Positions 33 to 46,457 of a stretch of DNA of 46,602 nucleotides are shown piece after piece. The stretch is from UHGV virus genome UHGV-0186543. One strand, given 5' to 3'. Each line of letters starts with the position of its first letter. The first letter of the stretch is position 1. Position numbers and translations under genes: made by a program. Source of the DNA: a virus. The notes beneath the pieces are model-generated. The model was not told the DNA's origin and ran no database searches. It was given only the letters and a program-made list of their open reading frames with translations.

Positions 33-821
33 TCAAAATGCTGAATCAGCAACGGATACAGCCGACTTTTCCCCCATTAGCATCAATTTATCCAGCGTCA
101 TACTTCGCAGGTTGTCGCTGTGGATCACCAGATACCCTGCCCGCTCAGCGATCTCTTTGAAAGCGTCAAAGGTCATCAGATGTTCGCCTTTGGCAACATG
201 GCGCATCCTGGTCACTTTTCCATTTTTGATAGTGGTGATAAAAGAAAAATCCGGAATGGTTGGCTGATTTTCATCGAGTAGCAGGCAGTGGATGTATTCA
301 ATCGCCTCTAACATTTGCGTCTGTGACAGTTGTTCTATGTGAGAGACGGCGAAACGTTGGTGAATCATGGTGTAGGCATCGGGATACATCATGCCTTTCT
401 TACCGACCAGCATATTAACGGCATCACGTAAGGGAGTACGGTCATCGGTAGTTGTACTCCGCCTCTCTGGGCGCTGGCTAAAATAACAATCTTCAAGCTT
501 TTCGAAAACTTCCCAAGCCTGTTCTGTTTCCAGCATTTTGGCATGGCGAGCTGCGCCGCGTTCTGTCCAGAGAATGAGGGATCGGGTATGTTTAGCAACT
601 GACTGACTATCTGTCAGTCTGTTTTTGAAGTCGCGTAATTCATTACCTTCCAGCTTAAAAAAATGCTTTCCTACGACAAATCTGGCGATGTTGCGCTTGA
701 AGTTTTGCTGGATACCATTTACTTCCGTGCCATACAAACTGGCAAGCAATTCAGTAGTGATGACGGGAAGTTGGTTATGATGTAGCGGAGAAAGGGATTC
801 CGCAGATATTTGGATTGTCAT
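33..821 (-). CDS. ant: antirepressor (ORF6N/Bro-N-like N-terminal domain plus KilA-C/Ant-like C-terminal domain)
   Basis: ORF 33..869. The N-terminal LPVITTELLASLYGTEVNGIQQNFKRNIARFVVGKHFFKLEGNELRDFK is typical of ORF6N antirepressors. Start placed at ATG 821 (GAGG 8 nt upstream); ATG 851 or TTG 869 are also possible. Confidence 0.75.
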   Translation of the reverse strand: MTIQISAESLSPLHHNQLPVITTELLASLYGTEVNGIQQNFKRNIARFVVGKHFFKLEGNELRDFKNRLTDSQSVAKHTRSLILWTERGAARHAKMLETEQAWEVFEKLEDCYFSQRPERRSTTTDDRTPLRDAVNMLVGKKGMMYPDAYTMIHQRFAVSHIEQLSQTQMLEAIEYIHCLLLDENQPTIPDFSFITTIKNGKVTRMRHVAKGEHLMTFDAFKEIAERAGYLVIHSDNLRSMTLDKLMLMGEKSAVSVADSAF

Positions 822-982
822 CGCAGTGGCCTCACTTAGTGTTTTTTTCATCACCACCAGCGACGCCAATCATCTGGTGGTGAACTGTGCAGGGTTGGCG
901 TAACCGGCTAAGTGAACCCGGCGCTTCCGCAGAAGCCCCCACACAGCCCACCATAATGCGAATGTGGCCGTGCCTAACACAT

Positions 983-1005
983 AAAAAAACCGCTAACGCG
1001 GCTAT
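983..1005 (-). terminator. intrinsic terminator upstream of ant
   Basis: On the minus strand, hairpin AGCCGC-gtta-GCGGTT is followed by TTTTTAT. It lies between the 73-aa ORF and ant. Confidence 0.55.
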
Positions 1006-1093
1006 GCGTCACTTAGATATCCGGGACGCCAATCCCGGCAACCGATTTTGCGGCTGCGCGGAAACTATAGCCCCGGGCTTTTTCTAAGTCAAT

Positions 1094-1315
1094 TCAATCA
1101 ACTTCAAACCTCCGGTGTTCACATTCCATACACTCAACGGGAACATCATCGCGATGCAAGTCCACATATCCGACCCGCTTATACAACTCAATAATGTCCG
1201 GTAACGTGACCAGATGTTTTTCCGGTTCCAACACCTCAGCCCTGGTTACTTTGTAATCTGAAATATAGAGCACTATCCGCCCGTTCCGTGGTAACTCCAG
1301 TTTATCGCCAAACAT
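1094..1315 (-). CDS. hypothetical small phage protein (73 aa)
   Basis: ATG-started ORF in the minus-strand early-right operon. No recognisable motif. Confidence 0.6.
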   Translation of the reverse strand: MFGDKLELPRNGRIVLYISDYKVTRAEVLEPEKHLVTLPDIIELYKRVGYVDLHRDDVPVECMECEHRRFEVD

Positions 1316-5437: not shown

Positions 5438-5914
5438 TCATGCATGGTGGCCTTGCGCAGTGCTTATCACTGCCCCTCGCGTCGCTACCAGCGCCGCTAT
5501 TGCTTCGTCAATTTCCTGGATAGTTAACTCTGGCGCGAAGTGGAGATGTACAGCGTTAATCGCTTCCACCCCTTCTTTTGCCGCCAGCGTTGCCAGCAAA
5601 ACGGGATCGCCCGGCGACTCCAGACGCGCCCGCCGTTCTGCGGGTAGCACGGCTTTCATCACACTGGCCAGCACCTGAGTTTTTCGGCGCGCCGCCGTTG
5701 TCTCGCCACGTAACCAGCGAAAGATTTTCTGCCGGTTGTTGTTGATGGCTCTCCAGTCCACGTTACCGTCCGCGTCCTCAAATTCATGTAGTCTCAACTC
5801 ATCATTGCGTCCCTGACTGAACCAGGCCCGGCAGATTTCAATTGTGACGAGTTCCTGCCCTGCCCTTGCCGCCCAGGTCAAAATCTCTTTTTGTAATTCC
5901 TCTGGGTTTTCCAT
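5438..5914 (-). CDS. YdaT-family protein (CII-like regulator position)
   Basis: 158 aa immediately downstream of the cro-like gene. The segment KIFRWLRGETTAARRKTQVLASVMKAVLPAERRARL resembles my recollection of Rac YdaT (YHRWLKGETKTQREKIQKLIPAILAILPRELRHRL). Confidence 0.55.
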   Translation of the reverse strand: MENPEELQKEILTWAARAGQELVTIEICRAWFSQGRNDELRLHEFEDADGNVDWRAINNNRQKIFRWLRGETTAARRKTQVLASVMKAVLPAERRARLESPGDPVLLATLAAKEGVEAINAVHLHFAPELTIQEIDEAIAALVATRGAVISTAQGHHA

Positions 5915-5973: not shown

Positions 5974-6171
5974 CTAAGCTTTTTCATGTTTTGGAACATC
6001 GTAAAAAGTCGGGTCATATTTCAGTGCTCCGTTAGTGATATGGTCGAGTCGAGCAGCTCGCTTTTCAGGAACTGTTGCCCCCCAACGAGTAACCGCCACT
6101 TGAGATATACCCAGCACCTTGGCTGTGGCTGTCTTTGAACCAAAAAAACTAATAACCGTCTCTGTTTTCAT
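5974..6171 (-). CDS. Cro/YdaS-like HTH regulator
   Basis: 65 aa with HTH KTATAKVLGISQVAVTRW. Divergent from the repressor gene. SD GGAGGG upstream of the ATG. Confidence 0.8.
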   Translation of the reverse strand: MKTETVISFFGSKTATAKVLGISQVAVTRWGATVPEKRAARLDHITNGALKYDPTFYDVPKHEKA

Positions 6172-6182
6172 AATCCCTCCAC

Positions 6183-6235
6183 GTAACTTTTGTTAGCAAC
6201 ATAAATACTAACGAAAGTTATGTCAAGTTAACTTA
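6183..6235. promoter_or_regulatory. immunity switch: PR promoter plus operators
   Basis: Minus strand: TTGACA (6221-6226), 17 nt, TATGTT (6198-6203). Operators of type CTAAC-N4-GTTA at 6184-6196 (reverse-complement reading) and 6208-6220. Palindrome AAGTTAACTT at 6225-6234. Confidence 0.7.
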
Positions 6236-6239
6236 TATT

Positions 6240-6653
6240 ATGAGGATGAAGAATTTGATGCTTAGCGACCGTTTATCTCAAAGACGCAAACAGCTTGGTC
6301 TAACCCAACAACAGCTTGCTGATATGGTTGGAAGATCGAGTGTGAGCGTTTTTAAATGGGAAAGCGGACAAAATGAACCAAAGGGTCAGAACTTGCTGGC
6401 TTTGGCCAATGCACTTAAGTGTTCTGCCACATGGCTGCTTTTTGGTGACGAAGACCAGGCACCAACTCCGGTAGACGAATTACCAACAGAGCTGGATTCA
6501 CGTCAAAAAAGATTGTTAGAGTTATTTGATTCATTACCCGAGTCAGAAAAAGAAAAGCAACTAATTGAATTAGAAGATAAAGTTGAAAACTTTAATCGTT
6601 TATTTGAAGAGTTACTGGTTACCAGAAAGAAACTAACCCCCACCAAAAAATAA
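6240..6653 (+). CDS. CI-type repressor, XRE-family HTH, no S24 peptidase domain
   Basis: 137 aa. HTH LTQQQLADMVGRSSVSVFKWESG. Acidic, coiled-coil-like C-terminus. Too short for, and lacking, a LexA/CI autocleavage domain. Start could be 6240 (nearly leaderless) or ATG 6258. Confidence 0.85.
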   Translation: MRMKNLMLSDRLSQRRKQLGLTQQQLADMVGRSSVSVFKWESGQNEPKGQNLLALANALKCSATWLLFGDEDQAPTPVDELPTELDSRQKRLLELFDSLPESEKEKQLIELEDKVENFNRLFEELLVTRKKLTPTKK

Positions 6654-11017: not shown

Positions 11018-11216
11018 ATCAAAGCAATGTGAGGCTCTTCGCCGGGCTGGAATTTTCTTCATGGAAAGGGCTGACGGGCACCCAAAAACAACCTGGGGCC
11101 ATTTCATGAACCCAATAAAATTTCGCAATTTACAGGAGGTGACGACGCGAAAAGATGATGAACCTGATTTTGGAGCAATATTTAATGGCCGGAAAGAGAA
11201 AGAACCCAGCAGATAA
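10953..11216 (+). CDS. excisionase-like protein (DUF4224-type)
   Basis: 87 aa. ITREEMVELTGSPLKSKQCEALRRAGIFFMERADGHP matches the DUF4224 pattern usually found just upstream of phage integrases. Leader TGAGGAAAGACC abuts the ATG. Confidence 0.65.
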   Translation: MRSDHDIITREEMVELTGSPLKSKQCEALRRAGIFFMERADGHPKTTWGHFMNPIKFRNLQEVTTRKDDEPDFGAIFNGRKEKEPSR

Positions 11217-12201
11217 CTGGATGCCGCCTCGTGTTTACCAGGGCAAAGCGGCCTACGAATTCAGGAATAAAGATAACAAAGCGATACGCCTGTGCGCATT
11301 GGATGCGCCACGATCAGCCGTATGGCTGGCATATGAAAAAGCGGTCGGTGACGAAAAAGAAAGAAATACTTTTCAGGCGCTCGCGGAACAATTCATGACC
11401 TCCCCTGATTTTATGGATTTGGCAGTCGAAACCAGGAAAGACTACACAAAATATTCCGGAAAAGTTCTGCCTGTCTTCGGGAAGATCGACCCGGATAAAA
11501 TCAAACCTGAACATATTCGGCGCTATATGGATCAACGCGGTTTATCAAGCCGAACTCAGGCAAACAGGGAAAAAAGCTTTATGTCCAGGGTATTCCGTTG
11601 GGGTTATGAACGAGGTTATGTCCAGAGGAATCCTTGTCAGGGAGTTAAGCAGTTTAAAGAGACAGCACGCGAACGTTATATTACGGATGAAGAATATCAG
11701 GCCGTTTATGAAGTATCTCCTGATGTTGTTCGCGTGGCAATGGAGATTGCCTACTTATGCGTGGCCAGACAGAGTGATGTACTTTCATTGCAGAAAGACC
11801 AGCTGTTCGATTCCGGGATCTACATTCGTCAGGGAAAAACCGGCGTTAAGCAAATCAAAGCCTGGTCGCCTCGTCTGCAGAAAGCGATAGCTCTGGCTCG
11901 TTCTCTGCCATTAAAACCGGGAATCAGTAGCCTGTTTGTGATTCATCAAACTACCGGAGGCAAGTACACCCGTGATGGTTTTAACTCTCGTTGGCGTGAT
12001 GTCAAAGCGGCAGCACAGGAAAAATATCCTCATCTGCAAATAGACTTCACATTTCATGATCTGAAAGCAAAAGGTATCTCTGATCTGGAAGGCAGCCTGG
12101 AAGAGAAGCAAGCAATTTCCGGGCATAAGAACCCACGACAGACAGCAGCATATGACCGAAAAGTTAAAGTAGTGCCCGTAGTTGGTGGCCAGAGAAAATG
12201 A
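11185..12201 (+). CDS. int: tyrosine site-specific integrase
   Basis: Start at ATG 11185 (MAGKRKNPADNWMPPRVYQGK). Catalytic-domain motifs ARQSDVLSL, HDLKAKG and GHKNPRQTAAYDR. Adjacent to the tRNA-derived att core. Confidence 0.9.
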   Translation: MAGKRKNPADNWMPPRVYQGKAAYEFRNKDNKAIRLCALDAPRSAVWLAYEKAVGDEKERNTFQALAEQFMTSPDFMDLAVETRKDYTKYSGKVLPVFGKIDPDKIKPEHIRRYMDQRGLSSRTQANREKSFMSRVFRWGYERGYVQRNPCQGVKQFKETARERYITDEEYQAVYEVSPDVVRVAMEIAYLCVARQSDVLSLQKDQLFDSGIYIRQGKTGVKQIKAWSPRLQKAIALARSLPLKPGISSLFVIHQTTGGKYTRDGFNSRWRDVKAAAQEKYPHLQIDFTFHDLKAKGISDLEGSLEEKQAISGHKNPRQTAAYDRKVKVVPVVGGQRK

Positions 12202-35199: not shown

Positions 35200-35871
35200 T
35201 TATACGCAAACGTCGTCTAAATGGTTTTGATAATGATGCAAAGTTGCAAGAAGTGCCACTTCATCAAGTGCTCTCACCGCCTCTTTCATTCCTGCCCAGT
35301 GCGGGGAGTATGTTTCGCACCAGGTGGAACGAGAAACAGACAACATTCCAGCTAGCGCAGATCCGGCCATCTCCTTAAAATCCTCGCGTTTATTTGATGC
35401 TGCGACCGCCTGCACGGACAACCACACCAACGAAAGCAGGCGCTTAACTACTTTTCTCTGAGTTGACGAGGGGATGTGTCCTTTATAGCGACTCCAGACA
35501 GCCTCACAAATAGCTGTTTGGTGTTTGAATGCCAGGTTACCACCGTAGCAATAACGCAACCACGCTTGCTGACTTGCATCCAGCGAGTTCACAGAACGCC
35601 GCCAGGATGAATCAGCAAATTCAAAATCACTCATCGGCGGCGCGGGGCGACGTCTGCTGAAACTTTCCAGAGCGTAAACTGGCGTAACCAGAGCATCAAC
35701 GGTCCGGTCCTCCAGCTGCACACGGTGAATATGTTTGCGTGGGTATGCGTTTTTGTCTGCCGGTGGGTGCTCACACAATGCTTCCAGTTGCCCCTTAGAA
35801 CCACCAGACAAATCCCGCAATGCAGCGCGCAGTTTTATGCGGGTATATTCCAATAAATACTCGTTACTCAT
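35200..35871 (-). CDS. putative late-gene antiterminator (Q analogue)
   Basis: 223 aa, placed immediately upstream of the terminator-containing spacer and lysis cassette. Assignment is mainly positional. Confidence 0.55.
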   Translation of the reverse strand: MSNEYLLEYTRIKLRAALRDLSGGSKGQLEALCEHPPADKNAYPRKHIHRVQLEDRTVDALVTPVYALESFSRRRPAPPMSDFEFADSSWRRSVNSLDASQQAWLRYCYGGNLAFKHQTAICEAVWSRYKGHIPSSTQRKVVKRLLSLVWLSVQAVAASNKREDFKEMAGSALAGMLSVSRSTWCETYSPHWAGMKEAVRALDEVALLATLHHYQNHLDDVCV

Positions 35872-36164
35872 CAGATAAACTCCTCATCGCGCCAGATAGC
35901 CAGTGTTCTGAAAACTCCCTCAGCGTGCATCAACAGCAATGAGTCGTGCTCGTAATCCGTTTTTGTACGTCCGTCGATAGCATCGTGACACGCACTACAG
36001 GCGATAGCGCCCTGCATATCGTGAGGTTTGATGGCTGTGCCGCACGTTCCGGCGAGACGATAATGAGCCAGTACGCTGGTTTCAGGATTGTGATTGCACA
36101 CACCGGGGATACGCACAGTACAAGCGCGACCACGTGCAGCTTTTCTCAGGTCGATTTTTTTCAT
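35871..36164 (-). CDS. YbcO-like protein (DUF1364)
   Basis: DLRKAARGRACTVRIPGVCNHNPETSVLAHYRLAGTCGTAIKPHD ... IACSACHD closely resembles my recollection of DLP12 YbcO. Confidence 0.7.
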   Translation of the reverse strand: MKKIDLRKAARGRACTVRIPGVCNHNPETSVLAHYRLAGTCGTAIKPHDMQGAIACSACHDAIDGRTKTDYEHDSLLLMHAEGVFRTLAIWRDEEFI

Positions 36165-36757
36165 GATGTGTAATCCAGCAGCTGCGCGGCAGCATTTTCA
36201 GCGGCCTCCTGAGAGGCAAACGTGCGGAACAAAATATAATTCCACAGCACATCTAAAACGGCTGAATACAGTTGACCGAACTCAAGATCGTCCATCGCAG
36301 CAAACGAGATTGAACGAGGTACGCGCATCAAACTGCCGTCTGGCATCTGATGAACGTCATAAAGCCCAGCTTCCATAATCGCCCATGCGCGAAACGCCTC
36401 GAACGACTTCACAGCACTGATATTCCCCGCGCGCTTTTCCGACTCATCGAGAAGATACTGATCAGCCAGCTCTGCCATGACATCACCGTGTCCACCGTAA
36501 TACGCCAGTAACTTAACGTAGCCATGGACCAGTTCGCGCTCCGCAGGAGAAATAGCCCCTCCGGACGGATGCCAGTAATCAAAGCCCAGGTTTAGAAGTG
36601 AGAAAAATTTACGATGAAACGCGGGATTACGCGCCTGTTTGAAATCTGCATACACAACAGCACCTGGTTTGACTCGTTCAGTCAACCAGCGTTGCGTGTC
36701 TGGTGTCGCGGGTATTAGCGAACCGCCGGATACCCTGATAAATGAATGCTGCGCCAT
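36161..36757 (-). CDS. conserved nin-region protein (DUF1367-like, 198 aa)
   Basis: Size and position are typical of conserved ~200-aa lambdoid nin proteins. The family name is from memory only. Confidence 0.5.
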   Translation of the reverse strand: MAQHSFIRVSGGSLIPATPDTQRWLTERVKPGAVVYADFKQARNPAFHRKFFSLLNLGFDYWHPSGGAISPAERELVHGYVKLLAYYGGHGDVMAELADQYLLDESEKRAGNISAVKSFEAFRAWAIMEAGLYDVHQMPDGSLMRVPRSISFAAMDDLEFGQLYSAVLDVLWNYILFRTFASQEAAENAAAQLLDYTS

Positions 36758-36833
36758 GGTTAACTCCAGGTGGCGCGGCAGTGTTCAGAAGTGGTGCTGG
36801 GTGTTCAATCCAGCACCAGTATTATACCGTGTT

Positions 36834-37013
36834 TTACGCTTCAGGGGGTGTAATAGTATATCCAGCTATTTCTGCCAACTCGAGAAACGCCATCAGGCTG
36901 GCAATCCGTTCATCATCAGTCAGAACACGCACACCAACGATGTGTCCGTCCTTACGCTTGATAACAGCCCGGCATGTTTCCGGTAGTTCGCCTATAGATT
37001 CTTGAATATTCAT
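36834..37013 (-). CDS. 59-aa ORF behind a LexA-controlled promoter (candidate small antirepressor)
   Basis: MNIQESIGELPETCRAVIKRKDGHIVGVRVLTDDERIASLMAFLELAEIAGYTITPPEA. SD GGGGGA upstream. Below the ORF-track cutoff. Confidence 0.55.
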   Translation of the reverse strand: MNIQESIGELPETCRAVIKRKDGHIVGVRVLTDDERIASLMAFLELAEIAGYTITPPEA

Positions 37014-37032
37014 GTCTTCCCCCTAACGCCAT

Positions 37033-37070
37033 TGCCTGTACATTTATACAGTATTTTATGGCATTTGTCA
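37033..37070 (-). promoter_or_regulatory. SOS box overlapping a sigma70 promoter
   Basis: gcCTGTacatttatACAGta at 37033-37052 matches CTGT-N8-ACAG and 16/20 of the LexA consensus. Minus-strand promoter ATGACA (37065-37070), 17 nt, TATAAA (37042-47). The box covers the -10. Confidence 0.75.
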
Positions 37071-37164
37071 TAACGCCAGATACAATGAGGGAATAATGAA
37101 CAATTATATTCACGTCGTGAATTTTATTAAATGGTTTTATAGGGGATTAAACCGTTTATGGTCA

Positions 37165-37806
37165 TTATTTATCACTCCTGTAAATTGAAATTAACCATTC
37201 TCTAATCGTCGACGCTGCAGGTGGGTCAGAGTATTTCGCCACAAAAATACCGGATATGTATTGCACACCACGCGATAATGGCGCTGTCGGGTTTTCAGTA
37301 AAAAAACGATCAGCCAGTTCAATGGCTTCGCTTTTTAATCTGTGCTGTGGCCGTCCTCCGCCCTTAGTGCCAAGGTAACGCGCCAGTTGTTTGAAACGGT
37401 AGGCGATGATTAACGGTCGCATCATCATATTGAAAAAATCGCGGGCATCGTTGTCAGCGCCTTGCGCTATCAACAGTGCAAAAAACAGATACGGGATTGT
37501 GTACACTTCAGGAGATATACGAACCCGTTCACAAGTTGGTGGAGCCAATTTAATAAGTAAGTCAGCCTGCGAATTCCCCTTTTCTCCACGTTTGTAATAG
37601 CGATACAGCGGCCCGATATCAAGTTCACTCGCGTCGATTTCAGGATGCCCGGCAACGGCTGTACGTATCTCTTCTGCCAGAGCGTCAAATATTGCTCCGG
37701 TCCGCTCAAGATAGAGCCTCCGGGTCGAACCGCGATCATCCAACGCCCGTAACATATCTAACCGGCTAACGAAAGTTTCAGGCCAGCCCTCATAGAAGGT
37801 TTTCAT
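37165..37806 (-). CDS. hypothetical protein (213 aa)
   Basis: ATG start. First minus-strand gene left of the accessory island. No motif recognised. Confidence 0.6.
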   Translation of the reverse strand: MKTFYEGWPETFVSRLDMLRALDDRGSTRRLYLERTGAIFDALAEEIRTAVAGHPEIDASELDIGPLYRYYKRGEKGNSQADLLIKLAPPTCERVRISPEVYTIPYLFFALLIAQGADNDARDFFNMMMRPLIIAYRFKQLARYLGTKGGGRPQHRLKSEAIELADRFFTENPTAPLSRGVQYISGIFVAKYSDPPAASTIREWLISIYRSDK

Positions 37807-37871
37807 AATTACCTCGAATAAAAAAATTGCATTATTTGCACAATTTATTATTCGTTTTCACATCGCGAAGT

Positions 37872-37902
37872 CTATAAAAAAGAAGACCCGCCGAAGCGGG
37901 TT
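37872..37902 (-). terminator. intrinsic terminator at the left edge of the accessory island
   Basis: Minus strand: AACCCGC-ttcg-GCGGGTC followed by TTCTTTTTTAT. Confidence 0.65.
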
Positions 37903-38119
37903 AGTAAATCATTTGTGCCAAATTATAAGACCACACCGTAAGCTTTTATATGCGTCCTATGGTTATAGCTCATATTATATGCTTCAAAAATATCTATTCT
38001 TTTGTTCTAACGTCAACACCTACCCTTAAAAGATTAATTCTCTAAGAATGAGAGAATGTTGTGTGTATTAGATAAGATATGAGCTGACACATCTATGGCG
38101 TGAAGACAAATTTAATCTG

Positions 38120-38200
38120 ACAGTCCACTTTTTTGCCAGAGCGGATATCGCAAGCGTTAAGTCAGATATTTGAAAACGCATCGTTATCCTGGTTGGGATA
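38120..38200 (+). repeat. R0, degenerate copy of the R repeat
   Basis: TCCACTtttttgccaGAGCGGA hairpin (38124-38146) aligns with the R3 hairpin. ggttgggatac aligns with the G(T/G)GGGAAC block. Confidence 0.5.
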
Positions 38201-38315
38201 CTTGCACTACTTTTAGGCGTACTGCTATCTTGCACAGTTATTCAAAGGTAATTTTTTCTTTATTAGTAGCCTACTTCCAGGGGCTTGTACAACTGACAAA
38301 ACGAGGGAGATCCCC

Positions 38316-39095
38316 ATGAGCAACAAAGATTTTTCACTTTTTTATTTTGCAACCATTGATCGGTCTTACTTCCTCGACAAACACAATTTTTATGTTGCTG
38401 AAGCCAGAAAGCGTCTATTTTCGCAGTTTAGCGATTCTGATCTTGAAGCTGATGCCAGGCAGAGAGAACAAGATTACTATGAGGCCGCCGGTAAGCGTTT
38501 TGACCCCGATTATGACGACGAAGGGGCTATCTGTGAACAGGCTCATGATGAAGGAATTTCACATTGGATTGCTCTCAGTGATATGAAAAATACGGTTTCA
38601 CTTGCTCTGACAGCAGGAATGTTTCATCAGTTCGACAAGGAACTTCGAGAGAAGTGTATCAGAGAATTCAGCCATTGGCTCGACGCTAAATCCGTAACAT
38701 CGATGATCTGGGACATTAGCTTCCCAAGGCTAATTGAAATTCTAGAATGGATTGGGATGGATATCACCAGCAAGGCTTATTACGAAAAAATCGATGCCTG
38801 TCGCCAAGTGGTTAATGTTTATAAGCACGGTGATGGCCATGCCCATCGGGTGCTTTCCGTCGCGCATCCTGAGTATTATCAGGATATCAATATTCCAAGA
38901 GGCTACAGATTTAGTCTACGTCATGAGCAACTTGAGGTTACAGAAACACAGTTTATAGAGTTTGCAGATGCGATTACAGCTTTCTGGAATGATATCCCAA
39001 CATACTGTATGCGCTCAGCTATTCGGGAAGAACCTGAATGGATAAATGGCGAATATAAAAAACATGAGAAGAAAGTTAAAATGCTTCAGGACTAA
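38316..39095 (+). CDS. orphan protein A (259 aa), function unknown
   Basis: ATG with GAGGGAG upstream. About 41% GC by eye. Flanked by R0 and R1. No confident domain (a RQVVNVYKHGDGH segment is only weakly HEPN-like). Confidence 0.7.
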   Translation: MSNKDFSLFYFATIDRSYFLDKHNFYVAEARKRLFSQFSDSDLEADARQREQDYYEAAGKRFDPDYDDEGAICEQAHDEGISHWIALSDMKNTVSLALTAGMFHQFDKELREKCIREFSHWLDAKSVTSMIWDISFPRLIEILEWIGMDITSKAYYEKIDACRQVVNVYKHGDGHAHRVLSVAHPEYYQDINIPRGYRFSLRHEQLEVTETQFIEFADAITAFWNDIPTYCMRSAIREEPEWINGEYKKHEKKVKMLQD

Positions 39096-39180
39096 AATTC
39101 TTGATAATAGCAAGTGTATCCTACATGTAGACATTTGCCTGCCGTGTCTTTTAGCTACCCTAGCTGCGAGAACAATTACG

Positions 39181-39286
39181 AACTTCCGCTCCTCGCTCAC
39201 AGCGAACTTTCAACTCAGTTAGCTTGCCCGCTTCGTACCAAAAGCGGGCATTGCTAACATCTATCTCCATCAATCTGTGGGAACAG
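39181..39286 (+). repeat. R1 structured repeat
   Basis: aacttccgctcctcgctcacagcg block, then an extended hairpin GTTAGC-tt-GCCCGCTT ... AAGCGGGC-att-GCTAAC (39218-39258), ending in gtgggaacag. Confidence 0.85.
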
Positions 39287-39573
39287 CTCGCCGTAATAGC
39301 ACATTGAATTCTATGTCTAAAAGCAGATGATCTGGTTTGCCGGGAAATTTACAAAATGACGGCGTCTCTTGTTAGAGATTCTCCCTGCTTCACACTGCTG
39401 ATTCTTCATGGATTTTAGTATAATTAGTGAAAAAAAATTTTTTGGTTGTTATCATATACATGAGGACTTCTTCAGAGGAACTGAGAAAAATTCGGGGATC
39501 ACTGAACACAATGACAATTAAGAAGATTAACTGTCTGGTAAGTGATTATTTTATTCATTAAAAAACAAACATC

Positions 39574-40236
39574 ATGATAATTGACTTTATAAAAAGCAAG
39601 GAAGCCTTGCTAATATTGGCAATAACTGTTCTATCTTATATGTCTGCAATTTCATTTGAATATGGCTATGCATATCATTTTGATTATCCTATGGAGTTTA
39701 TAACGTTAGATTCTAAATTTTTATTCGTGGGTATGTCATATTTATTTTTTAATATAATTTGTGTTATGTTGATGTTTTTTACTCCATGGCCTGAAAGTAA
39801 AGTAAAAGCAGTTAAAGTTACTGCAGTTACAGTTTTTATCATGATTGTTTTTATTGTTCAGTCTTATAGACATAAGACTGAATATGGTGGTTTTTTCGTT
39901 TTAAGTTTATCGATAGCAACAGTTACTTATATTATATACAAAATTGTTAAAAATCATAAACGTAATCCAAGTTATTTAATTTGGTCTGCAACCCTTCCCC
40001 TTATTGCCATAATGACATTTAGTTTCTTAATTGGTTTACAACAAGCGTCATTAAAAAAAGAATTTAGTTACTTTCATGATCAATCTAAAGACTACGTGAT
40101 TATTAGGTTGTATGACGGTAACCTTGTCGCTAAAGAAGTGAATATAAAAGAGCGCAAGCTAGGGAGTGAGATATTATATATACCTAGCTATAACCCAGCC
40201 CCTATAACGTTAAATAAAATTAAAATAGAACAATAG
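39574..40236 (+). CDS. orphan membrane protein B (220 aa)
   Basis: Very AT-rich. Four to five hydrophobic helices, then a roughly 70-aa soluble C-terminal region. Flanked by R1 and R2. Confidence 0.7.
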   Translation: MIIDFIKSKEALLILAITVLSYMSAISFEYGYAYHFDYPMEFITLDSKFLFVGMSYLFFNIICVMLMFFTPWPESKVKAVKVTAVTVFIMIVFIVQSYRHKTEYGGFFVLSLSIATVTYIIYKIVKNHKRNPSYLIWSATLPLIAIMTFSFLIGLQQASLKKEFSYFHDQSKDYVIIRLYDGNLVAKEVNIKERKLGSEILYIPSYNPAPITLNKIKIEQ

Positions 40237-40379
40237 ATTCATATAGTGGCCTTATGAAAAATAGGTCACTATCGTTGATATTTCATATGAATTTTTAACG
40301 ACCTTGGTAGTAAAATTATCGTAAATCCCCTACATAACAAGACCATTTACTATAGATCTGTTTTACTCTCAATAAAATC

Positions 40380-40480
40380 AACTTCCGCTCCTCGCTCACA
40401 GCGGACCTTCAGTTTTTTGTCCGCTTCGTGTCAGAAGCGGAAGTAGCTAACAACAGCCTATGTTGATTCAAGGGGAACAG
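40380..40480 (+). repeat. R2 structured repeat
   Basis: The first 24 nt are identical to R1. Hairpin TCCGCTTC-gtgtca-GAAGCGGA, then gctaac and aggggaacag. Confidence 0.85.
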
Positions 40481-40572
40481 GTCACTGGGTTAATCTAATT
40501 ATGTCCCTTTAGAACCATCTTTCTTAAGTGAATATATTTTCACTTTATTTTCTACTGCCTCAGTCATAAGGT

Positions 40573-41940
40573 TTATTTTTTGGCTTTTGACATCATGAGA
40601 AGGAAATATGAAGGGTGGCTCTTTATTTCTGAAGAATGGCTTGTAATATTAAAGACATCTTTTAGAATCGTAAAAGCTCCTGTAGCCAACGACACTGGAT
40701 TTGGTGCACCAATAAAACCTATCAATGAAGGCACACTGTTAAGAAAAAGTTCTTTTTTACTCTTCCGCTTATAGGCTTGTATTTTTTGCTCAATATCTGT
40801 CAATCCTTCATCCCACACCCGCTCGACAAAATGTTGATTTATTAGTTGTCTCTTATATGGATCACTTTCTGCTTCTATATCATACGCAGCTTCACGTAGT
40901 ACAGAGCGGAAAGAATTAAAACTCGGCTCGTAGTCAGTTCTAATTTTGTAGAGTTCACTTGGAGTCAGTCCCTCTAAGAATGGAACGTCTATAGAGAGTT
41001 TAACCCTCTGAACTTCATTCTTTTGATCAAGTTTACGAAGAATCTCTCCATGAAACGGGCAATATGCACCCAGGGATGCTCTACATGAATGCGCTTGGTT
41101 AAGGTCAGTAATAAGGTTTTTATAATGAAAGAGAACCGTACGGTTTTTTGCTCCCTGCACCCACCGTTCATAACTTTTTTTTCCGCTATGATTTCCCATG
41201 ACAAGCTCCATAGATATGGAGCCATCATCATTATCAATGGCATTTTTTATATGTTGATACATATATCCATTTGTATATAAACTTTCACAGTCTTTAATTT
41301 CCAACATAATTTCATTCGATAAAACATTTTTGTTTAATAACCGAATTTTATTTGTGTTACCTAGACGTTCTATATTCTTTACGGATAGTCTATTTTCATA
41401 AAGACGGGCAATGTTAGGAGGGAGATATCGATATATAAAATTAGCATCAGAGTTATCGTCTAAAATTCCATTGGCCCTCTCCGAATCTTTAATAGAAGAT
41501 TCGCTTCGTACAAAAACGATAAACTCACCACGGATAAGATCAAAGTTTTCTTTAGCAAACCTGATAAATCTAGCAATTTCCTTCCTGAGATGTTCAACCT
41601 TCTCTTTTCTATCGCTTACAATAATTTTTTCAAATGCATTTTCTGTTAGACTCACTCTGTATCGTAGGCTCAATGAATACAGAACATCATCAAGAATGAC
41701 TCTGTCCATTGAAAACAGTCCACTCTTATACCTTTCAATATTACGATTTCCCGCCATGTAAACATTTAGCCGAGACTCCTGTACAGAATTTGCTTGCTCG
41801 ATAATCAGTGAATCTATTCTTTTATTATATTCATCTAACTCAATTAGCAATTCATTCAATCCAATATTTTCATATTCCTGATCTAAAAGTCGATCAACCC
41901 AGAAAAGGCTTTCTGTGAGGGCATAGAGGTTGTTGTACAT
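40573..41940 (-). CDS. orphan protein C (455 aa), function unknown
   Basis: AT-rich. Own extended -10 promoter (TGTTATAAT, plus-strand coordinates 42028-42036). C-terminal hydrophobic segment LFLNSVPSLIGFIGAPNPVSLATGAFTIL. Flanked by R2 and R3. Confidence 0.75.
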   Translation of the reverse strand: MYNNLYALTESLFWVDRLLDQEYENIGLNELLIELDEYNKRIDSLIIEQANSVQESRLNVYMAGNRNIERYKSGLFSMDRVILDDVLYSLSLRYRVSLTENAFEKIIVSDRKEKVEHLRKEIARFIRFAKENFDLIRGEFIVFVRSESSIKDSERANGILDDNSDANFIYRYLPPNIARLYENRLSVKNIERLGNTNKIRLLNKNVLSNEIMLEIKDCESLYTNGYMYQHIKNAIDNDDGSISMELVMGNHSGKKSYERWVQGAKNRTVLFHYKNLITDLNQAHSCRASLGAYCPFHGEILRKLDQKNEVQRVKLSIDVPFLEGLTPSELYKIRTDYEPSFNSFRSVLREAAYDIEAESDPYKRQLINQHFVERVWDEGLTDIEQKIQAYKRKSKKELFLNSVPSLIGFIGAPNPVSLATGAFTILKDVFNITSHSSEIKSHPSYFLLMMSKAKK

Positions 41941-42092
41941 ATCAGTTCCTTTTTACCAGGCTTCAGTCAGAGTACACTATCATTTTACATTTAAATGTAC
42001 TTCCAAGCATCATGCTGTTAGTGCTGGATTATAACACTTGGCACCCGTATGTTTGGATAACAAACTGCGTATAATCCTTGTGAGTTGTGATG

Positions 42093-42198
42093 TCTGTTTC
42101 TCGCTCACAGCGGGTCTTCAGTTGTTCGTCCACTCTGTGCCAGGAGCGGACATTGATTATTCCTCACTGTAAAAATCTTAATGCTAACTAGTGGGAAC
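42093..42198 (+). repeat. R3 structured repeat
   Basis: Contains ctcgctcacagcg, hairpin GTCCACTC-tgtgcca-GAGCGGAC, gctaac and gtgggaac. TATAAT at 42070-42075 lies just upstream, so R3 would be the 5' leader of the nuclease operon. Confidence 0.8.
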
Positions 42199-42220
42199 TA
42201 TAAGTTGTCAATTGACATGA

Positions 42221-43072
<852 letters not shown>

Positions 43073-43152
43073 CCAATATATGGCAGTAATGAATATTTCG
43101 GGGATCGTGTTTGCCGCGGTCACGGTTACCATTATTAGTGTGCTGAACTGAA

Positions 43153-44388
43153 ATGACTAAGCGAAATAAAACCCCAAAATTTAACTTGGACAAAGCTCGC
43201 AAAAAAGAGATTCGCGCAGCCTTAACCAGCGTGGGTATGACCCCTCAACATGATGGCTGGGCGGATTTGTTTATGTACGCTTATACAGATGGCAGCAATT
43301 TAAACGGTTTGCAATTGGCCAAAGCCTTATCAGTGCATCCAACGCTGATAAATGGTTTATCGCGCGGCATCAAATTAAAACCAGAGAAAGCGCTCTCCAA
43401 AAAACGACCATCAAAACCTACGCTGGCCGATAAACGCCGCGAGGCCAAACAGAAGGTCAATATGGGCTGGGAAGCGCTGATTCGCACTATGCCTATGCAA
43501 AAGCCAGGCGCACGCAAAAACCCTGAAACAGAAGCCCTTTGGGAGAATGCCCGTCGCCGTGGCACGTCCCAGGCCAGCACGCCAGCATTTACGCCGACAA
43601 TCATCCCGCGCAAGGTTTCCGCTCAAATCAACACCGAATTACCAGGCCTGCAATCAACGCAGATGGAAACACCGAAACGGTATGATTCTGTGAGCATGAC
43701 ATCAAAAGTTACGACAAAGCTGGATAATCGCGTCCTACAGGATTTTCTGGCAAAACACATTCCACCCAGCCAGCGTCGTGATGTTGAGCTTTATATCCAC
43801 AAACACCAGCATGAAGCCACCACGACCATTGAACTGGTACAGCGGTACCTGGATGATCAGGAAGAAAAGCAAATCATCCGAGAAGCCGAGAAGCTGGCCG
43901 ATGTTGTTCCGGAACTGGTAGCCGATGATCGAATCATCATGTCGCAGGAAGTAGTGGTCGTCGTGGAGGAAGAGAAACCCGCGCCCGCGCTTGGCCAACC
44001 TGTCAAACTCCACAGTACCCGAACCGCGCAGCGCATCGTTGAGCAGCGCGACGCGACGGCGCATATGCAGTTTGTTGAATGGGTATGGAATAATTTTGCT
44101 GGCCGTTGCGCGGTGACTGGCTGGCAGAACGGCGAACGATTGCAAGCGGCGCACATTGAGCCAGCTACCTCAGGCAATTTTAGCGCTGATAATGGCCTGT
44201 TGTTGACTCCAACGATACACGACTTACTAGACGCAGAGCTGATGGCCGTCAACCCTGAAACAATGACCGTACATTTTGCCCCAGGTATTGAGCTCGGCGC
44301 GATGTTTGAAGGCAAAGTGATTGAGCCTAAATTATGGCCGCTGAACATGGCCGCGTTGGTTAAACGCTGGAAAGAACGGAAATTCTGA
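43153..44388 (+). CDS. protein with a C-terminal HNH (HNH_2-type) nuclease domain
   Basis: 411 aa. GRCAVTGWQNGERLQAAHIEPATSGNFSADNGLLLTPTIHDLLDAELMAV fits the HNH_2 pattern (C.vTG ... L.AAHI.P ... NGLLL ... H.lfD). The ~300-aa basic, low-complexity N-terminal region is unassigned. Confidence 0.75.
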   Translation: MTKRNKTPKFNLDKARKKEIRAALTSVGMTPQHDGWADLFMYAYTDGSNLNGLQLAKALSVHPTLINGLSRGIKLKPEKALSKKRPSKPTLADKRREAKQKVNMGWEALIRTMPMQKPGARKNPETEALWENARRRGTSQASTPAFTPTIIPRKVSAQINTELPGLQSTQMETPKRYDSVSMTSKVTTKLDNRVLQDFLAKHIPPSQRRDVELYIHKHQHEATTTIELVQRYLDDQEEKQIIREAEKLADVVPELVADDRIIMSQEVVVVVEEEKPAPALGQPVKLHSTRTAQRIVEQRDATAHMQFVEWVWNNFAGRCAVTGWQNGERLQAAHIEPATSGNFSADNGLLLTPTIHDLLDAELMAVNPETMTVHFAPGIELGAMFEGKVIEPKLWPLNMAALVKRWKERKF

Positions 44389-44519
44389 TTAAATATTTTA
44401 ATCACCATCGTGCTGGCTGCCATCGCCTATATGGCGTTGCCTCATCACTCGAATCCGAATGCATAATCTTATCCGAGTGGGGAAAGTGCACCACCAAAAC
44501 ATCGAAACAGGAATAGAAA

Positions 44520-45080
44520 ATGAACGGAATATCAAAAATCATCTTAGCACTGACCGCTGGATTTACGCTGTCCGGATGTGTAAGCCATACCCAAAAAAAT
44601 TCACAACCAGATCCGGCTGCAATCGAGGCGGCAAAACTTGCGCAGTACACCGATTCACAGCTTTGCCAGGCAGAAGATAATATAGAGCCATTGCTCAACC
44701 TTAATCCATCATCTCATCCTGAATTTAATGAAAATTATCGCCGCGCCCAGGCTATTAAAAAGGTGATCGCCTCTCGTAATTTAAGCTGCTACCGCCTGAA
44801 AATGGAGAGGGCAGAACAGGCCACACCAGCACGCCCGTTAAGCCCACGACAAAAACAAGCGAGGGCATCCGCTGTTTGCCAGGCTTACGCCCAGCGTACC
44901 CGATTTGCGGATCCGACAGTCACATTTCAGATGTGCGGGAAAGGATTCCAGTCTACTTCGGCAAAATGTAAGGAAGATTTGGCGAGTTTTGAACGTGAGT
45001 CTCAGAAACTTAGAGGTACGGCCAGAGCGGAATATGTTGAAATTAGCAGTGCATTTCGGGCAGGCTGTGCTTTAAAATAA
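44520..45080 (+). CDS. lipoprotein (186 aa)
   Basis: Signal peptide plus lipobox FTLSGC. Several Cys residues. No other motif recognised. Confidence 0.7.
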   Translation: MNGISKIILALTAGFTLSGCVSHTQKNSQPDPAAIEAAKLAQYTDSQLCQAEDNIEPLLNLNPSSHPEFNENYRRAQAIKKVIASRNLSCYRLKMERAEQATPARPLSPRQKQARASAVCQAYAQRTRFADPTVTFQMCGKGFQSTSAKCKEDLASFERESQKLRGTARAEYVEISSAFRAGCALK

Positions 45081-45533
45081 AAAATGAAGTAATATTAATA
45101 ACGCAATTGAATTTAAAAAAAATCAATGCCTACTCGGTGCCATATACAGCCATGGTTATTAACAGCAGGGAATAATTCCACACTGAAATTAAATGTCTGC
45201 CTTTTACAGTAGAAATAGTTTCTCCAGGACACTATCCATTGCCGGGCACAATCACTCGGGGTATAACGATATAAAATATGTTCATGATAGTGCAGGTTCG
45301 TATATTAAGTTCAGCAGCGAAAACATGCCTTACAGGTTTCCGGTTTTGGGAGCGTCGTTACAGGATCCTGCGCATACCGTTCCCATCTGTTGAATTAAAG
45401 GTTTCACAGCCTTTGCCGATATCGCCTTTTACCTTGCCTGTGATGCGTTCAGTGCTCAGCGTTGTTTACTGTAGCTCTCGGGACTGATTACAGACCGCGT
45501 CTTAAAAACCAATCCTTACTCTAAAGGGAATTC

Positions 45534-46457
45534 ATGAGATTAAAATACTCAGTACTCTTACTCGCCATTGCCCTTACAGGCTGTGATAACAAAAAAGATG
45601 AGATCGGTTGTTCTTCGGAAATAACCCAGTCAGCTCTCATGGATTTATTAAAAAAATCTGCTTATGAAGGACTCTCTGAACAGGTCGATAAATACCCTGA
45701 TGTCACTAATCAGACCAAACGAAGCACATTGGACAAGATCAAACTAGCCATCTCTGAGATCTCCACAACATCAAGTGACACGGGCAGCACAATGAAAACT
45801 TGTGAAGGGACCGTGACGATGACTCTATCTGCGAACGAGTACGTCCAGCTTTCAGATGCTTACAGAAAGAATTTTAATCGTAATCTCGACAAGCAAATGG
45901 AAAGCCTGTTTTTGGAGAACAACGCAAACGCCTTTTCCAAACGTATCACCTACACCGTGCAGGCGACCGACGATCAGAAAAACGTTTTTGTAAAAACCTC
46001 TTCTGATAATCCGATATCAGTGGGCGCCGCTTTACTGACATCACTTTCTATTATCAACCCGATCGTTGAGCAGCAGAAAATCCAGCAGGCTAAGGATGCC
46101 CAACAGAGCCAAATTGAAGCGGAACAACAGGTGCAACTCAGGGCGCAGGAACAGGCTAAGTATGAGGCGGAGAAGCAAATAGAGAGACAGGCACAACTTC
46201 AGCCACAAAAAGCTGACAGCCTTGATCAGTCCCGAATGGCATTTGCGAATGCCGACTCTGATTTGAGTACCGTCTGGAGCAAGTTAACCCCGGCGAAGAA
46301 AAAAGATTTGCTGCCTTCTCAGCGTCAGTGGATCAAAACTAAGGATGCTATGTGCGGTAAAGTTTCAATGCAGGGAACAGATGCTGAAGTCAAGAAAATG
46401 CTCGACTGCCAGACGCAAATGACCCTTTCAAGAATCGCTTTCCTCAGAAACCAATAA
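45534..46457 (+). CDS. lipoprotein with a C-terminal DUF1311/LprI-like domain
   Basis: Lipobox IALTGC. A Gln/Glu-rich coiled coil. The C-terminal LPSQRQWIKTKDAMCGK ... MLDCQTQMTLSRIAFL fits the QR.W...RD..C ... C....T..R...L pattern. Confidence 0.75.
   Translation: MRLKYSVLLLAIALTGCDNKKDEIGCSSEITQSALMDLLKKSAYEGLSEQVDKYPDVTNQTKRSTLDKIKLAISEISTTSSDTGSTMKTCEGTVTMTLSANEYVQLSDAYRKNFNRNLDKQMESLFLENNANAFSKRITYTVQATDDQKNVFVKTSSDNPISVGAALLTSLSIINPIVEQQKIQQAKDAQQSQIEAEQQVQLRAQEQAKYEAEKQIERQAQLQPQKADSLDQSRMAFANADSDLSTVWSKLTPAKKKDLLPSQRQWIKTKDAMCGKVSMQGTDAEVKKMLDCQTQMTLSRIAFLRNQ

Follow-up and report, generated by a model that had tools for sequence, protein, structure and literature searches.

GfoA, GftA and FsoA are experimentally tested antirepressors (Lemire et al., PMC3121763), and Rem antagonises DicA (Ragunathan et al. 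2023, PMC10448788). In Gifsy-2, SEN34 and mEp237, the gene order runs from a terminator through a promoter with a LexA box, dinI, the antirepressor gene and a hairpin to DUF1367 (irsA), and on to Q. Here we describe a related locus in UHGV virus genome UHGV-0186543, a stretch of 46,602 nucleotides (nt) that we call the window. The window, of 46.6 kilobases (kb), is a complete temperate Escherichia coli (E. coli) phage genome, circularly permuted. On its minus strand, a LexA box covers the -10 hexamer of a predicted promoter, followed by an open reading frame (ORF) of 59 amino acids (aa).

A preliminary description of this DNA, made from the letters alone, had guessed that the ORF encodes an SOS-controlled antirepressor of a non-cleavable repressor. 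We consider it probable, at about 75%, that this locus senses SOS for a lysis-lysogeny switch of the DicA/Gifsy type, in which the LexA-repressed 59-aa protein removes a DicA-like repressor. The mechanism itself is known; new here is a dinI-less, minimal form of the Gifsy-type LexA-controlled antirepressor.

A LexA box over the promoter of the small gene

The control region and the small gene comprise the following features.

37034-37053 (read 37053 to 37034), minus strand: LexA (SOS) box TACTGTATAAATGTACAGGC, with its core CTGT-N8-ACAG at 37036-37051
37043-37071, minus strand: predicted sigma-70-type promoter, with -35 ATGACA at 37071-37066, a 17-nt spacer and -10 TATAAA at 37048-37043
37016-37024, minus strand: Shine-Dalgarno sequence AGGGGGAAG, its end 2 nt short of the ATG at 37013
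36834-37013, minus strand: ORF for a 59-aa protein, predicted to be a small, SOS-induced antirepressor of the GfoA/FsoA/Rem family (PHROG 340)

Sixteen of the 20 positions of TACTGTATAAATGTACAGGC agree with the consensus TACTGTATATATATACAGTA, the same count as had been reported from the letters alone, and the site is a palindrome of the TACTGT(AT)4ACAGTA type. The preliminary description had the core motif right and its coordinates, 37035-37050, one base off. It had also described the box as overlapping the -10 of a minus-strand ATGACA-17-TATAAA promoter; read from the sequence, this -10 does sit within the box. A consensus promoter scan missed the promoter, as its rule demands a T at position 6 of the -10 hexamer. 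The distance from the box to the ATG is 20 nt.

Scoring the site with a LexA position weight matrix (PWM) had been proposed as a check. We ran it with an approximate PWM, made from some 25 SOS boxes of E. coli. The box scored 19.97 bits, the training sites spanning 13-26 bits, and when the whole window was shuffled 200 times, no shuffle had a site as good (best sites: mean 12.2 bits, standard deviation 2.3, maximum 19.0). Because it beats all of the shuffles and the runner-up site in the window reaches just 13.1 bits with the same PWM, the box is the only credible SOS box in the phage.

The same arrangement recurs in distant relatives. With a 7-sequence sub-alignment of distant homologues, including the BUCT708 protein, 80 IMG/VR loci were fetched; these reduced to 71 distinct upstream sequences, 70 of them with upstream DNA to examine. 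A LexA box was present in all 70 (20.3-27.8 bits), 18-46 nt upstream of the start of the small-gene match; 68 of these loci also have a DUF1367 gene about 70 nt downstream, which shares 65-70% identity with that of the window. The box overlaps or abuts the -10 hexamer in the IMG/VR loci, Gifsy-2 and SEN34. BUCT708, a deposit labelled as a Stenotrophomonas phage, shares the module and the overall early-gene layout, and its small protein is 38% identical to the ORF product.

Could the LexA-like sequence be a chance AT-rich palindrome without any regulatory role? Promoter regions are AT-rich, and the CTGT-N8-ACAG pattern by itself occurs twice in the window (0.46 expected), with 9 of 100 shuffles giving at least two matches. 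The full 20-mer, however, outscores all 200 shuffles, and an equivalent box precedes the distant homologues in 70 of 70 loci. Moreover, three diverged E. coli alleles share both arms (CTGT and ACAG) and the -35 without any change, whereas the spacer and the flanks of the box vary; the GGGGGA of the Shine-Dalgarno sequence is also kept, and one of these alleles has the near-consensus box TACTGTATATATATACAGT. A chance origin is thus very improbable.

Two observations concern the box and its surroundings. Despite its Stenotrophomonas label, vB_SmeS_BUCT708 carries a box of the E. coli type, CTGT-N8-ACAG; the LexA of its host may recognise such a site; if not, the assigned host should be re-examined. 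In the window, a second promoter-like site, TTAATA-16-TATAAT (37130-37103, minus strand, 10 of 12 matches), lies upstream of the LexA box by about 50 nt. A palindrome, ATTCACGaCGTGAAT (37108-37122), is contained in the spacer of this site, with arms kept across diverged alleles and a variable centre; the window has no second copy of it. This site could be an operator for another regulator or a LexA-independent source of transcription.

The 59-aa protein and its relatives

The ORF is a genuine coding sequence. Its ratio of nonsynonymous to synonymous change (pN/pS) is 0.22-0.24 against alleles 75-76% identical, consistent with purifying selection. The ORF had been described as unannotated and as having a strong Shine-Dalgarno sequence. 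The latter is present, while the former does not hold: RefSeq lists the product as a 'hypothetical protein' (WP_001025459.1). PHROG assigns it to phrog_340 ('unknown function') with an expect value (E) of 2.5e-20. The Pfam copy used contained no family for the ORF, FsoA, Rem or GftA; PF27490, precomputed on one homologue, is a model outside that copy.

A single-sequence word-indexed protein search returned just 7 near-identical E. coli proteins. An exhaustive profile search of 1.84 billion representative proteins returned 89 clusters at 50% identity with E <= 0.001, almost all of them homologues. Most homologues are stand-alone proteins of 55-80 aa, and some are the C-terminal domain of longer proteins, whose N-termini, judged by eye, resemble the Rha, Bro-N, KilA-N or ORF6N domains of Ant proteins. 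All 120 homologues listed, of 247, are unnamed. The 59-aa protein is small and single-domain (below about 100 aa), and no DNA-binding domain is present in it; it has no N-terminal ORF6N, Bro-N, KilA-N or Rha domain and equals just the C-terminal module of proteins that do.

The comparison with tested antirepressors relied on sequences recovered in several ways. FsoA was identified as Fels-1 STM0898.2n via primers le154 and le162 (Table S1 of Lemire et al., PMC3121763), and the Rem sequence was taken from the MG1655 record. The ends of GfoA came from primers in the same table: a megablast of the C-terminal primer against phage records led to SEN34 and mEp237, and an exact-match scan of IMG/VR with the gfoA primer gave no match. 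A family hidden Markov model (HMM), built from 71 small homologues and the ORF itself, gave 60.6 bits for FsoA and 23.4 bits for Rem. By BLASTP, the ORF product is 33% identical over 52 aa to the GfoA-type protein of Salmonella phage SEN34 (E 6e-10) and 41% identical over 39 aa to FsoA (E 3e-8). The family motif is G-R-x-(V/L)-(I/L)-x5-G-x-(V/I)-x3-R-x-L-x-DDE-x7-F-x7-G-Y-x-(V/I)-T-P-P. Its GY-x-(V/I)-TPP tail is common to the ORF and the SEN34 GfoA-like protein and is also encoded by primer le163.

An extra N-terminal beta-hairpin-like segment or insertion is present in GfoA, GftA and Rem, the 59-aa protein being the minimal form. An AlphaFold2 model of the latter starts with a short helix, followed by a beta-hairpin and a long helix, and has a predicted local distance difference test score (pLDDT) of 86; a Foldseek comparison of the model with the PDB found nothing better than E = 1 and hence no similar solved structure. 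Judged by sequence, the 59-aa protein belongs to the GfoA/GfhA/GftA/FsoA/Rem family of small antirepressors. The predicted antirepressor role is supported by this homology to FsoA, the GfoA-like protein and Rem, together with the Gifsy-like position of the gene.

A short DicA-like repressor and its predicted pairing with the antirepressor

The predicted target is encoded in the immunity region, next to the start of the early-right operon.

6240-6653, plus strand: repressor, divergent from the Cro/YdaS-like gene
5974-6171, minus strand: Cro/YdaS-like ORF, early-right (RefSeq name in E. coli E24377A)
5438-5914, minus strand: YdaT/CII-like gene, early-right (YdaT_toxin in Pfam; phrog_163, CII-like; RefSeq name in E24377A)

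The repressor has 135-137 aa (the RefSeq start is at 6246), and its sole Pfam domain is HTH_3. A tblastn search with LexA, UmuD and lambda CI found no S24 cleavage domain in any frame of the window (best E 0.23), in agreement with the earlier account of a short repressor without an S24 autocleavage domain. The repressor is 52% identical to DicA over its full length (E 2e-48), 56% identical to the BUCT708 repressor and 31% identical to GtgR. It is of the short, non-cleavable GtgR/DicA class and is the predicted target of the antirepressor. Since the repressor is 52% identical to DicA and the ORF falls in the Rem family, both partners of the tested Rem-DicA pair have relatives here. Proteolytic induction of the ImmA/IrrE type was also considered and set aside: an M78 peptidase occurs in some relatives, and none was found in the window. 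Between the divergent Cro-like and repressor genes lies a 13-base-pair (bp) inverted repeat, TAACTTTTGTTAG-N11-CTAACGAAAGTTA (6184-6220), a candidate operator of the DicA-like repressor.

The antirepressor and the repressor can be compared in two related prophages. In E24377A, the two proteins are 98% and 99% identical, respectively, to those of the window. In ETEC1738, the flanking genes are closely similar, the antirepressor is 75% identical, diverging chiefly over the N-terminal two thirds, and the identity of the repressor drops to 31%. This is suggestive of co-variation between the antirepressor allele and the repressor type.

A mosaic boundary is visible inside the antirepressor gene (36900-37013 compared with two retrieved loci, L006 and L098). 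The alleles differ strongly over the first ~115 nt, which encode the N-terminal two thirds, and scarcely at all over the last 60 nt and in the DNA downstream. Because the diverged allele accompanies a repressor only 31% identical, the sequences fit a model in which the N-terminal part of the antirepressor would set its specificity for the repressor.

Two further family domains in the phage

A six-frame scan of the window with the family HMM detected three domains. The 59-aa ORF scored 83.5 bits; the other two lie in the early-right operon, with a set of regulatory RNAs between them.

1094-1315, minus strand: 73-aa stand-alone paralogue MFGDKLELPRNGRIVLYISDYKVTRAEVLEPEKHLVTLPDIIELYKRVGYVDLHRDDVPVECMECEHRRFEVD, in the early-right operon (45.3 bits, E 2e-13)
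873-1070, minus strand: P1 immI-type RNAs (a1b1 targets, isrK and C4 antisense RNA), directly upstream of ant
33-869, minus strand: ORF6N-domain 'Ant' protein (ORF6N in Pfam; phrog_4792, anti-repressor)

The third domain is formed by C-terminal residues 211-255 of Ant (window 105-239; 58.4 bits); phrog_340 likewise matches Ant residues 213-254, and BLASTP of the ORF against the Ant C-terminus gives E 2e-5. The 73-aa paralogue has a Cys/His-rich tail, and the PWM scan found no LexA box near it. The RNAs scored 74.5 bits (RF01695), 80.4 bits (RF01394) and 52.9 bits (RF03163) in Rfam, all above the gathering scores. Neither the 73-aa ORF nor ant has an SOS box, and both are in the early-right operon. 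By analogy with FsoA, the two copies may have reinforcement or cross-talk functions.

The presence of three family domains in one window invites an explanation in which the 59-aa gene is SOS-induced and yet not the inducer of its own prophage: it would act in trans, for example on DicA of Qin, or reinforce, and the 73-aa paralogue or ORF6N-Ant would inactivate the phage's own repressor. The location of Ant behind a P1 immI-type C4/IsrK RNA is in keeping with this, given that in Gifsy-1 AnrP, an anti-repressor-like protein encoded behind IsrK, raises transcription of the antQ operon (PMC4825925). However, the 73-aa and Ant copies lie downstream of a repressor-controlled promoter. Because they are in a repressor-controlled operon without an SOS box, they cannot start induction unless something else acts first. 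Only the 59-aa gene has a repressor-independent input, and it is the allele of this gene that appears to co-vary with repressor type. We regard this explanation, with the 59-aa protein acting mainly in trans or as a reinforcement, as unlikely.

A broader arrangement can be envisaged, and we offer it tentatively, as a rather unlikely possibility. The one domain family would serve in a three-tier relay, with the SOS-gated 59-aa protein as the trigger, the 73-aa copy joining once the repressor is off, and C4/IsrK-gated ORF6N-Ant as a further tier; the trigger or the later copies might also inactivate DicA of Qin in trans. The last point is raised by the 52% identity between the window's repressor and DicA, and by the presence of the prophage region in about 8% of complete E. 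coli genomes. Mitomycin C has no effect in K-12, a strain not known to encode such an SOS-controlled antirepressor.

A candidate promoter and stem-loop ahead of the Q operon

Downstream of the ORF lies a compact regulatory element followed by three genes, named from Pfam and RefSeq.

36821-36826, minus strand: TATAAT, candidate -10 of a DUF1367-YbcO-Q promoter
36793-36817, minus strand: stem-loop GGTGCTGG-ATTGAACAC-CCAGCACC, without a U tract
36161-36757, minus strand: DUF1367/NinB-like gene, irsA homologue
35871-36164, minus strand: YbcO/DUF1364 gene
35200-35871, minus strand: antiterminator Q gene

The preliminary description had placed nin/Q genes after the small ORF, and Pfam confirmed DUF1367, YbcO/DUF1364 and Q; a PHROG 319 match also falls within this block (35200-36757, minus strand). 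The TATAAT is present in the window and in 46 of 47 distinct IMG/VR intergenic sequences, the other having TATAGT, and it is often extended to TGnTATAAT; its equivalents are CATAAT in Gifsy-2 and GATAAT in SEN34. It lies 4-8 nt upstream of the stem-loop, which folds with -15.9 kcal/mol (z -3.45). The stem covaries with a score of 0.435, compared with 0.193 in shuffles (none of 500 reached 0.435) and at most 0.10 with the partner slid. Stem pairs 7-23 and 8-22 switch between CG and UA, none being unpaired, and the 9-nt loop yyTGAACAC is conserved.

Downstream of gftA in Gifsy-2, of the gfoA-like gene in SEN34, and of rem, where the loop contains CTGAAC, this element recurs. In Gifsy-1, the start of antQ transcription has been mapped 1,600 nt upstream of antQ (Hershko-Shalev et al., PMC4825925), and the conserved -10 is about 1,600 nt upstream of Q in Gifsy-2 and SEN34. 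Because these positions agree, the -10 and the stem-loop are probably, by analogy, a Q-operon promoter with a 5' stem-loop on its transcript.

Other roles for the stem-loop were considered. It was rejected as a terminator, since it has no U tract, and as a repressor operator, its arms being unlike the inverted repeat of the immunity region and its invariant part being the loop rather than the arms. Its resemblance to a lambda-like boxB is loose. Among the retrieved loci, the element is located at 11706-11738 in L003, at about 2533-2566 in L015 and at about 6618-6640 in L013, and is also present in L017-L096.

These features bear on the question of what the LexA-controlled promoter is for. It might mainly transcribe DUF1367-YbcO-Q, such that SOS directly turns on late genes or recombination functions and the small ORF is an accessory leader gene. 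The stretch from the ORF to Q contains no intrinsic terminator, the hairpin having no U tract; an 8.5-kb island with opposite-strand genes separates the early-right operon from Q; and dinI-antirepressor-irsA has been described as a single LexA-regulated operon (Lemire et al., PMC3121763). On the other hand, the conserved TATAAT after the ORF matches the mapped Gifsy-1 antQ start, so the Q operon probably has a promoter of its own, and expression of gftA alone suffices for induction of Gifsy-2 (PMC3121763). The small protein is also under purifying selection and falls in an antirepressor family, which argues against a mere leader. We judge such a purpose for the promoter to be quite unlikely, and a little less credible than an action of the 59-aa protein in trans.

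Organisation and distribution of the phage

The ORF6N gene (33-869) and an LprI gene (45534-46457), at opposite ends of the window, adjoin in E24377A. The 601 bp around the locus has matches in 445 of 5,426 complete E. coli genomes (about 8%), always chromosomal, and 440 of the 445 are at >=95% identity; it is also present in phage vB_EcoM-705R4 (96.7% identity).

11155-12201: integrase gene

On the minus strand, the YdaT/CII-like gene is followed by an O-like replication gene, DnaB, several small genes and then ORF6N 'Ant'. After Ant come a cargo island, a 213-aa gene, the LexA-box locus, DUF1367, YbcO/DUF1364 and Q, and beyond Q are the genes for lysis, terminase, a lambda-like head and a P2-like contractile tail.

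The cargo island, of about 8.5-9 kb (37165-46457), lies between the early-right operon and the nin/Q region, and most of its genes are on the opposite strand. It contains LprI-like, HNH and GIY-YIG genes, genes for proteins of 455, 220 and 259 aa of unknown function, and the 213-aa gene. Related prophages have other cargo at this position: an ImmA/IrrE peptidase, GmrSD/DUF262, or an OLD-like ATPase with RloB. Lying immediately upstream of the SOS promoter, the island has the look of a variable hotspot for defence genes or morons.

Proposed course of induction

In the lysogen, host LexA on 37034-37053 would block the promoter, whose -10 is inside the box, and the 59-aa gene would be silent. Upon DNA damage, active RecA would promote self-cleavage of LexA, the promoter would fire, and the strongly translated 59-aa protein would accumulate. 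By analogy with its family, the protein would bind the dimeric 135-aa helix-turn-helix (HTH) repressor and take it off its operators without cleavage. An A2B2 complex was observed by Lemire et al. (PMC3121763). The early operons would then be released, with Cro, YdaT/CII-like, O and DnaB expressed rightward and the recombination and integrase genes leftward. The SOS transcript may also run into DUF1367-YbcO-Q because no terminator follows the 59-aa gene. We infer from these sequences that LexA binds the box in vivo, that the antirepressor interacts specifically with the repressor, and that this route is the main route of induction.

Several points weigh against this scheme. Its LexA score depends on an approximate PWM, and GftA scores just 7.3 bits with the family HMM, a marginal homology. 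The co-variation of antirepressor with repressor rests on two allele classes only. The phage has two further family domains, in the 73-aa ORF and the ORF6N-Ant C-terminus, either of which could act on the phage's own repressor, and FsoA shows that a family member need not target the repressor of its own phage (PMC3121763). No clear terminator was found between the upstream 213-aa gene and the SOS promoter. Because of this, and of the second promoter-like site at 37130-37103, control may be leakier than simple occlusion. Finally, a literature search gave no LexA-binding, transcript, expression, genetic or interaction data on the induction of this prophage.

A LexA-gated antirepressor of a DicA-like repressor would have several consequences. 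Through GfoA, FsoA and Rem, it suggests a function for a family that is called hypothetical in every database searched (PHROG 340 is of 'unknown function', and the Pfam copy used has no model). If the scheme is true, Gifsy-type induction extends to a prophage of the myovirus type, the region of which occurs in 445 of the 5,426 complete E. coli genomes, and to many related viral contigs, as a conserved module of LexA box, antirepressor, Q-operon promoter and DUF1367. Non-cleavable repressors of E. coli prophages could then be paired by sequence with candidate antirepressors. The scheme predicts which prophages DNA-damaging antibiotics should induce. It also provides a testable route for cross-talk between prophages, including DicA/dicBF: if DicA is inactivated in trans, the dicBF cell-division inhibitors would come under DNA-damage control in strains carrying the prophage.

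Comparison with known systems

The preliminary description had named Tum of coliphage 186 and the Gifsy phages as precedents. Gifsy stands, through its GfoA relative and synteny; Tum is a functional analogue only, and the true homologues are GfoA, FsoA and Rem. Tum and AntC of N15 follow the same logic, a LexA-repressed antirepressor inactivating a non-cleavable repressor, and are analogues rather than shown relatives. Tum has 146 aa, its second half being DinI-like (PMC3121763), whereas 59 aa leaves no room for a DinI-like half.

Some of the RNA-linked features recall a different system. As in P1 immI (c4-icd-ant) and Gifsy-1 isrK-orf45-anrP, C4, isrK and a1b1 of the window are directly upstream of an Ant-like gene. 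This module of the window, however, would be controlled by antisense RNA and is separate from LexA, and the C-terminus of its Ant is paralogous to the SOS-controlled antirepressor.

By profile score (60.6 bits), no tested relative is closer than FsoA of Fels-1, and the shared core motif is GR-V-L-x-I-ENG-x-V-x-x-R-x-L-x-DDEH-I-x-x-L-x-x-F-I-E-M-A-x-x-AG. Unlike the 59-aa gene, fsoA is in the left early operon under the repressor of Fels-1 rather than under LexA; FsoA targets a foreign repressor, GtgR, and Fels-1 itself has a cleavable CI. The situation of FsoA is thus nearer to that of the 73-aa paralogue of the window than to that of the 59-aa gene.

The Rem-DicA pair of Qin in E. coli K-12 resembles the window in its repressor (52% identity to DicA), in having a family member (Rem, 23.4 bits) at the same position upstream of the Q region, and in the same type of hairpin after the gene. 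Rem differs in its 83 aa with an insertion, and Qin is cryptic and defective.

The Gifsy module is alike in most respects. It shares the protein family, a LexA box on the promoter, an antirepressor gene that immediately precedes DUF1367/irsA and Q and is not part of the immunity region, a short HTH-only non-cleavable repressor, and the same hairpin after the antirepressor gene. The window, in contrast, has no dinI homologue, and the antirepressor gene is the first after the box; with just 20 nt between box and ATG, there is no dinI-like ORF here. Its protein has 59 aa as against about 73-80 and is without the extra N-terminal beta-hairpin, and its gene has an ATG and a strong Shine-Dalgarno sequence where Gifsy-type genes have GTG or TTG. 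The repressor of the window is nearer to DicA (52%) than to GtgR (31%), and its virion is that of a myovirus with a P2-like tail, whereas Gifsy is a lambda-like siphovirus. In Gifsy-1 and Gifsy-3, induction did not change significantly when dinI was deleted (Lemire et al., PMC3121763), and we therefore treat the locus of the window as a dinI-less variant of the Gifsy module.

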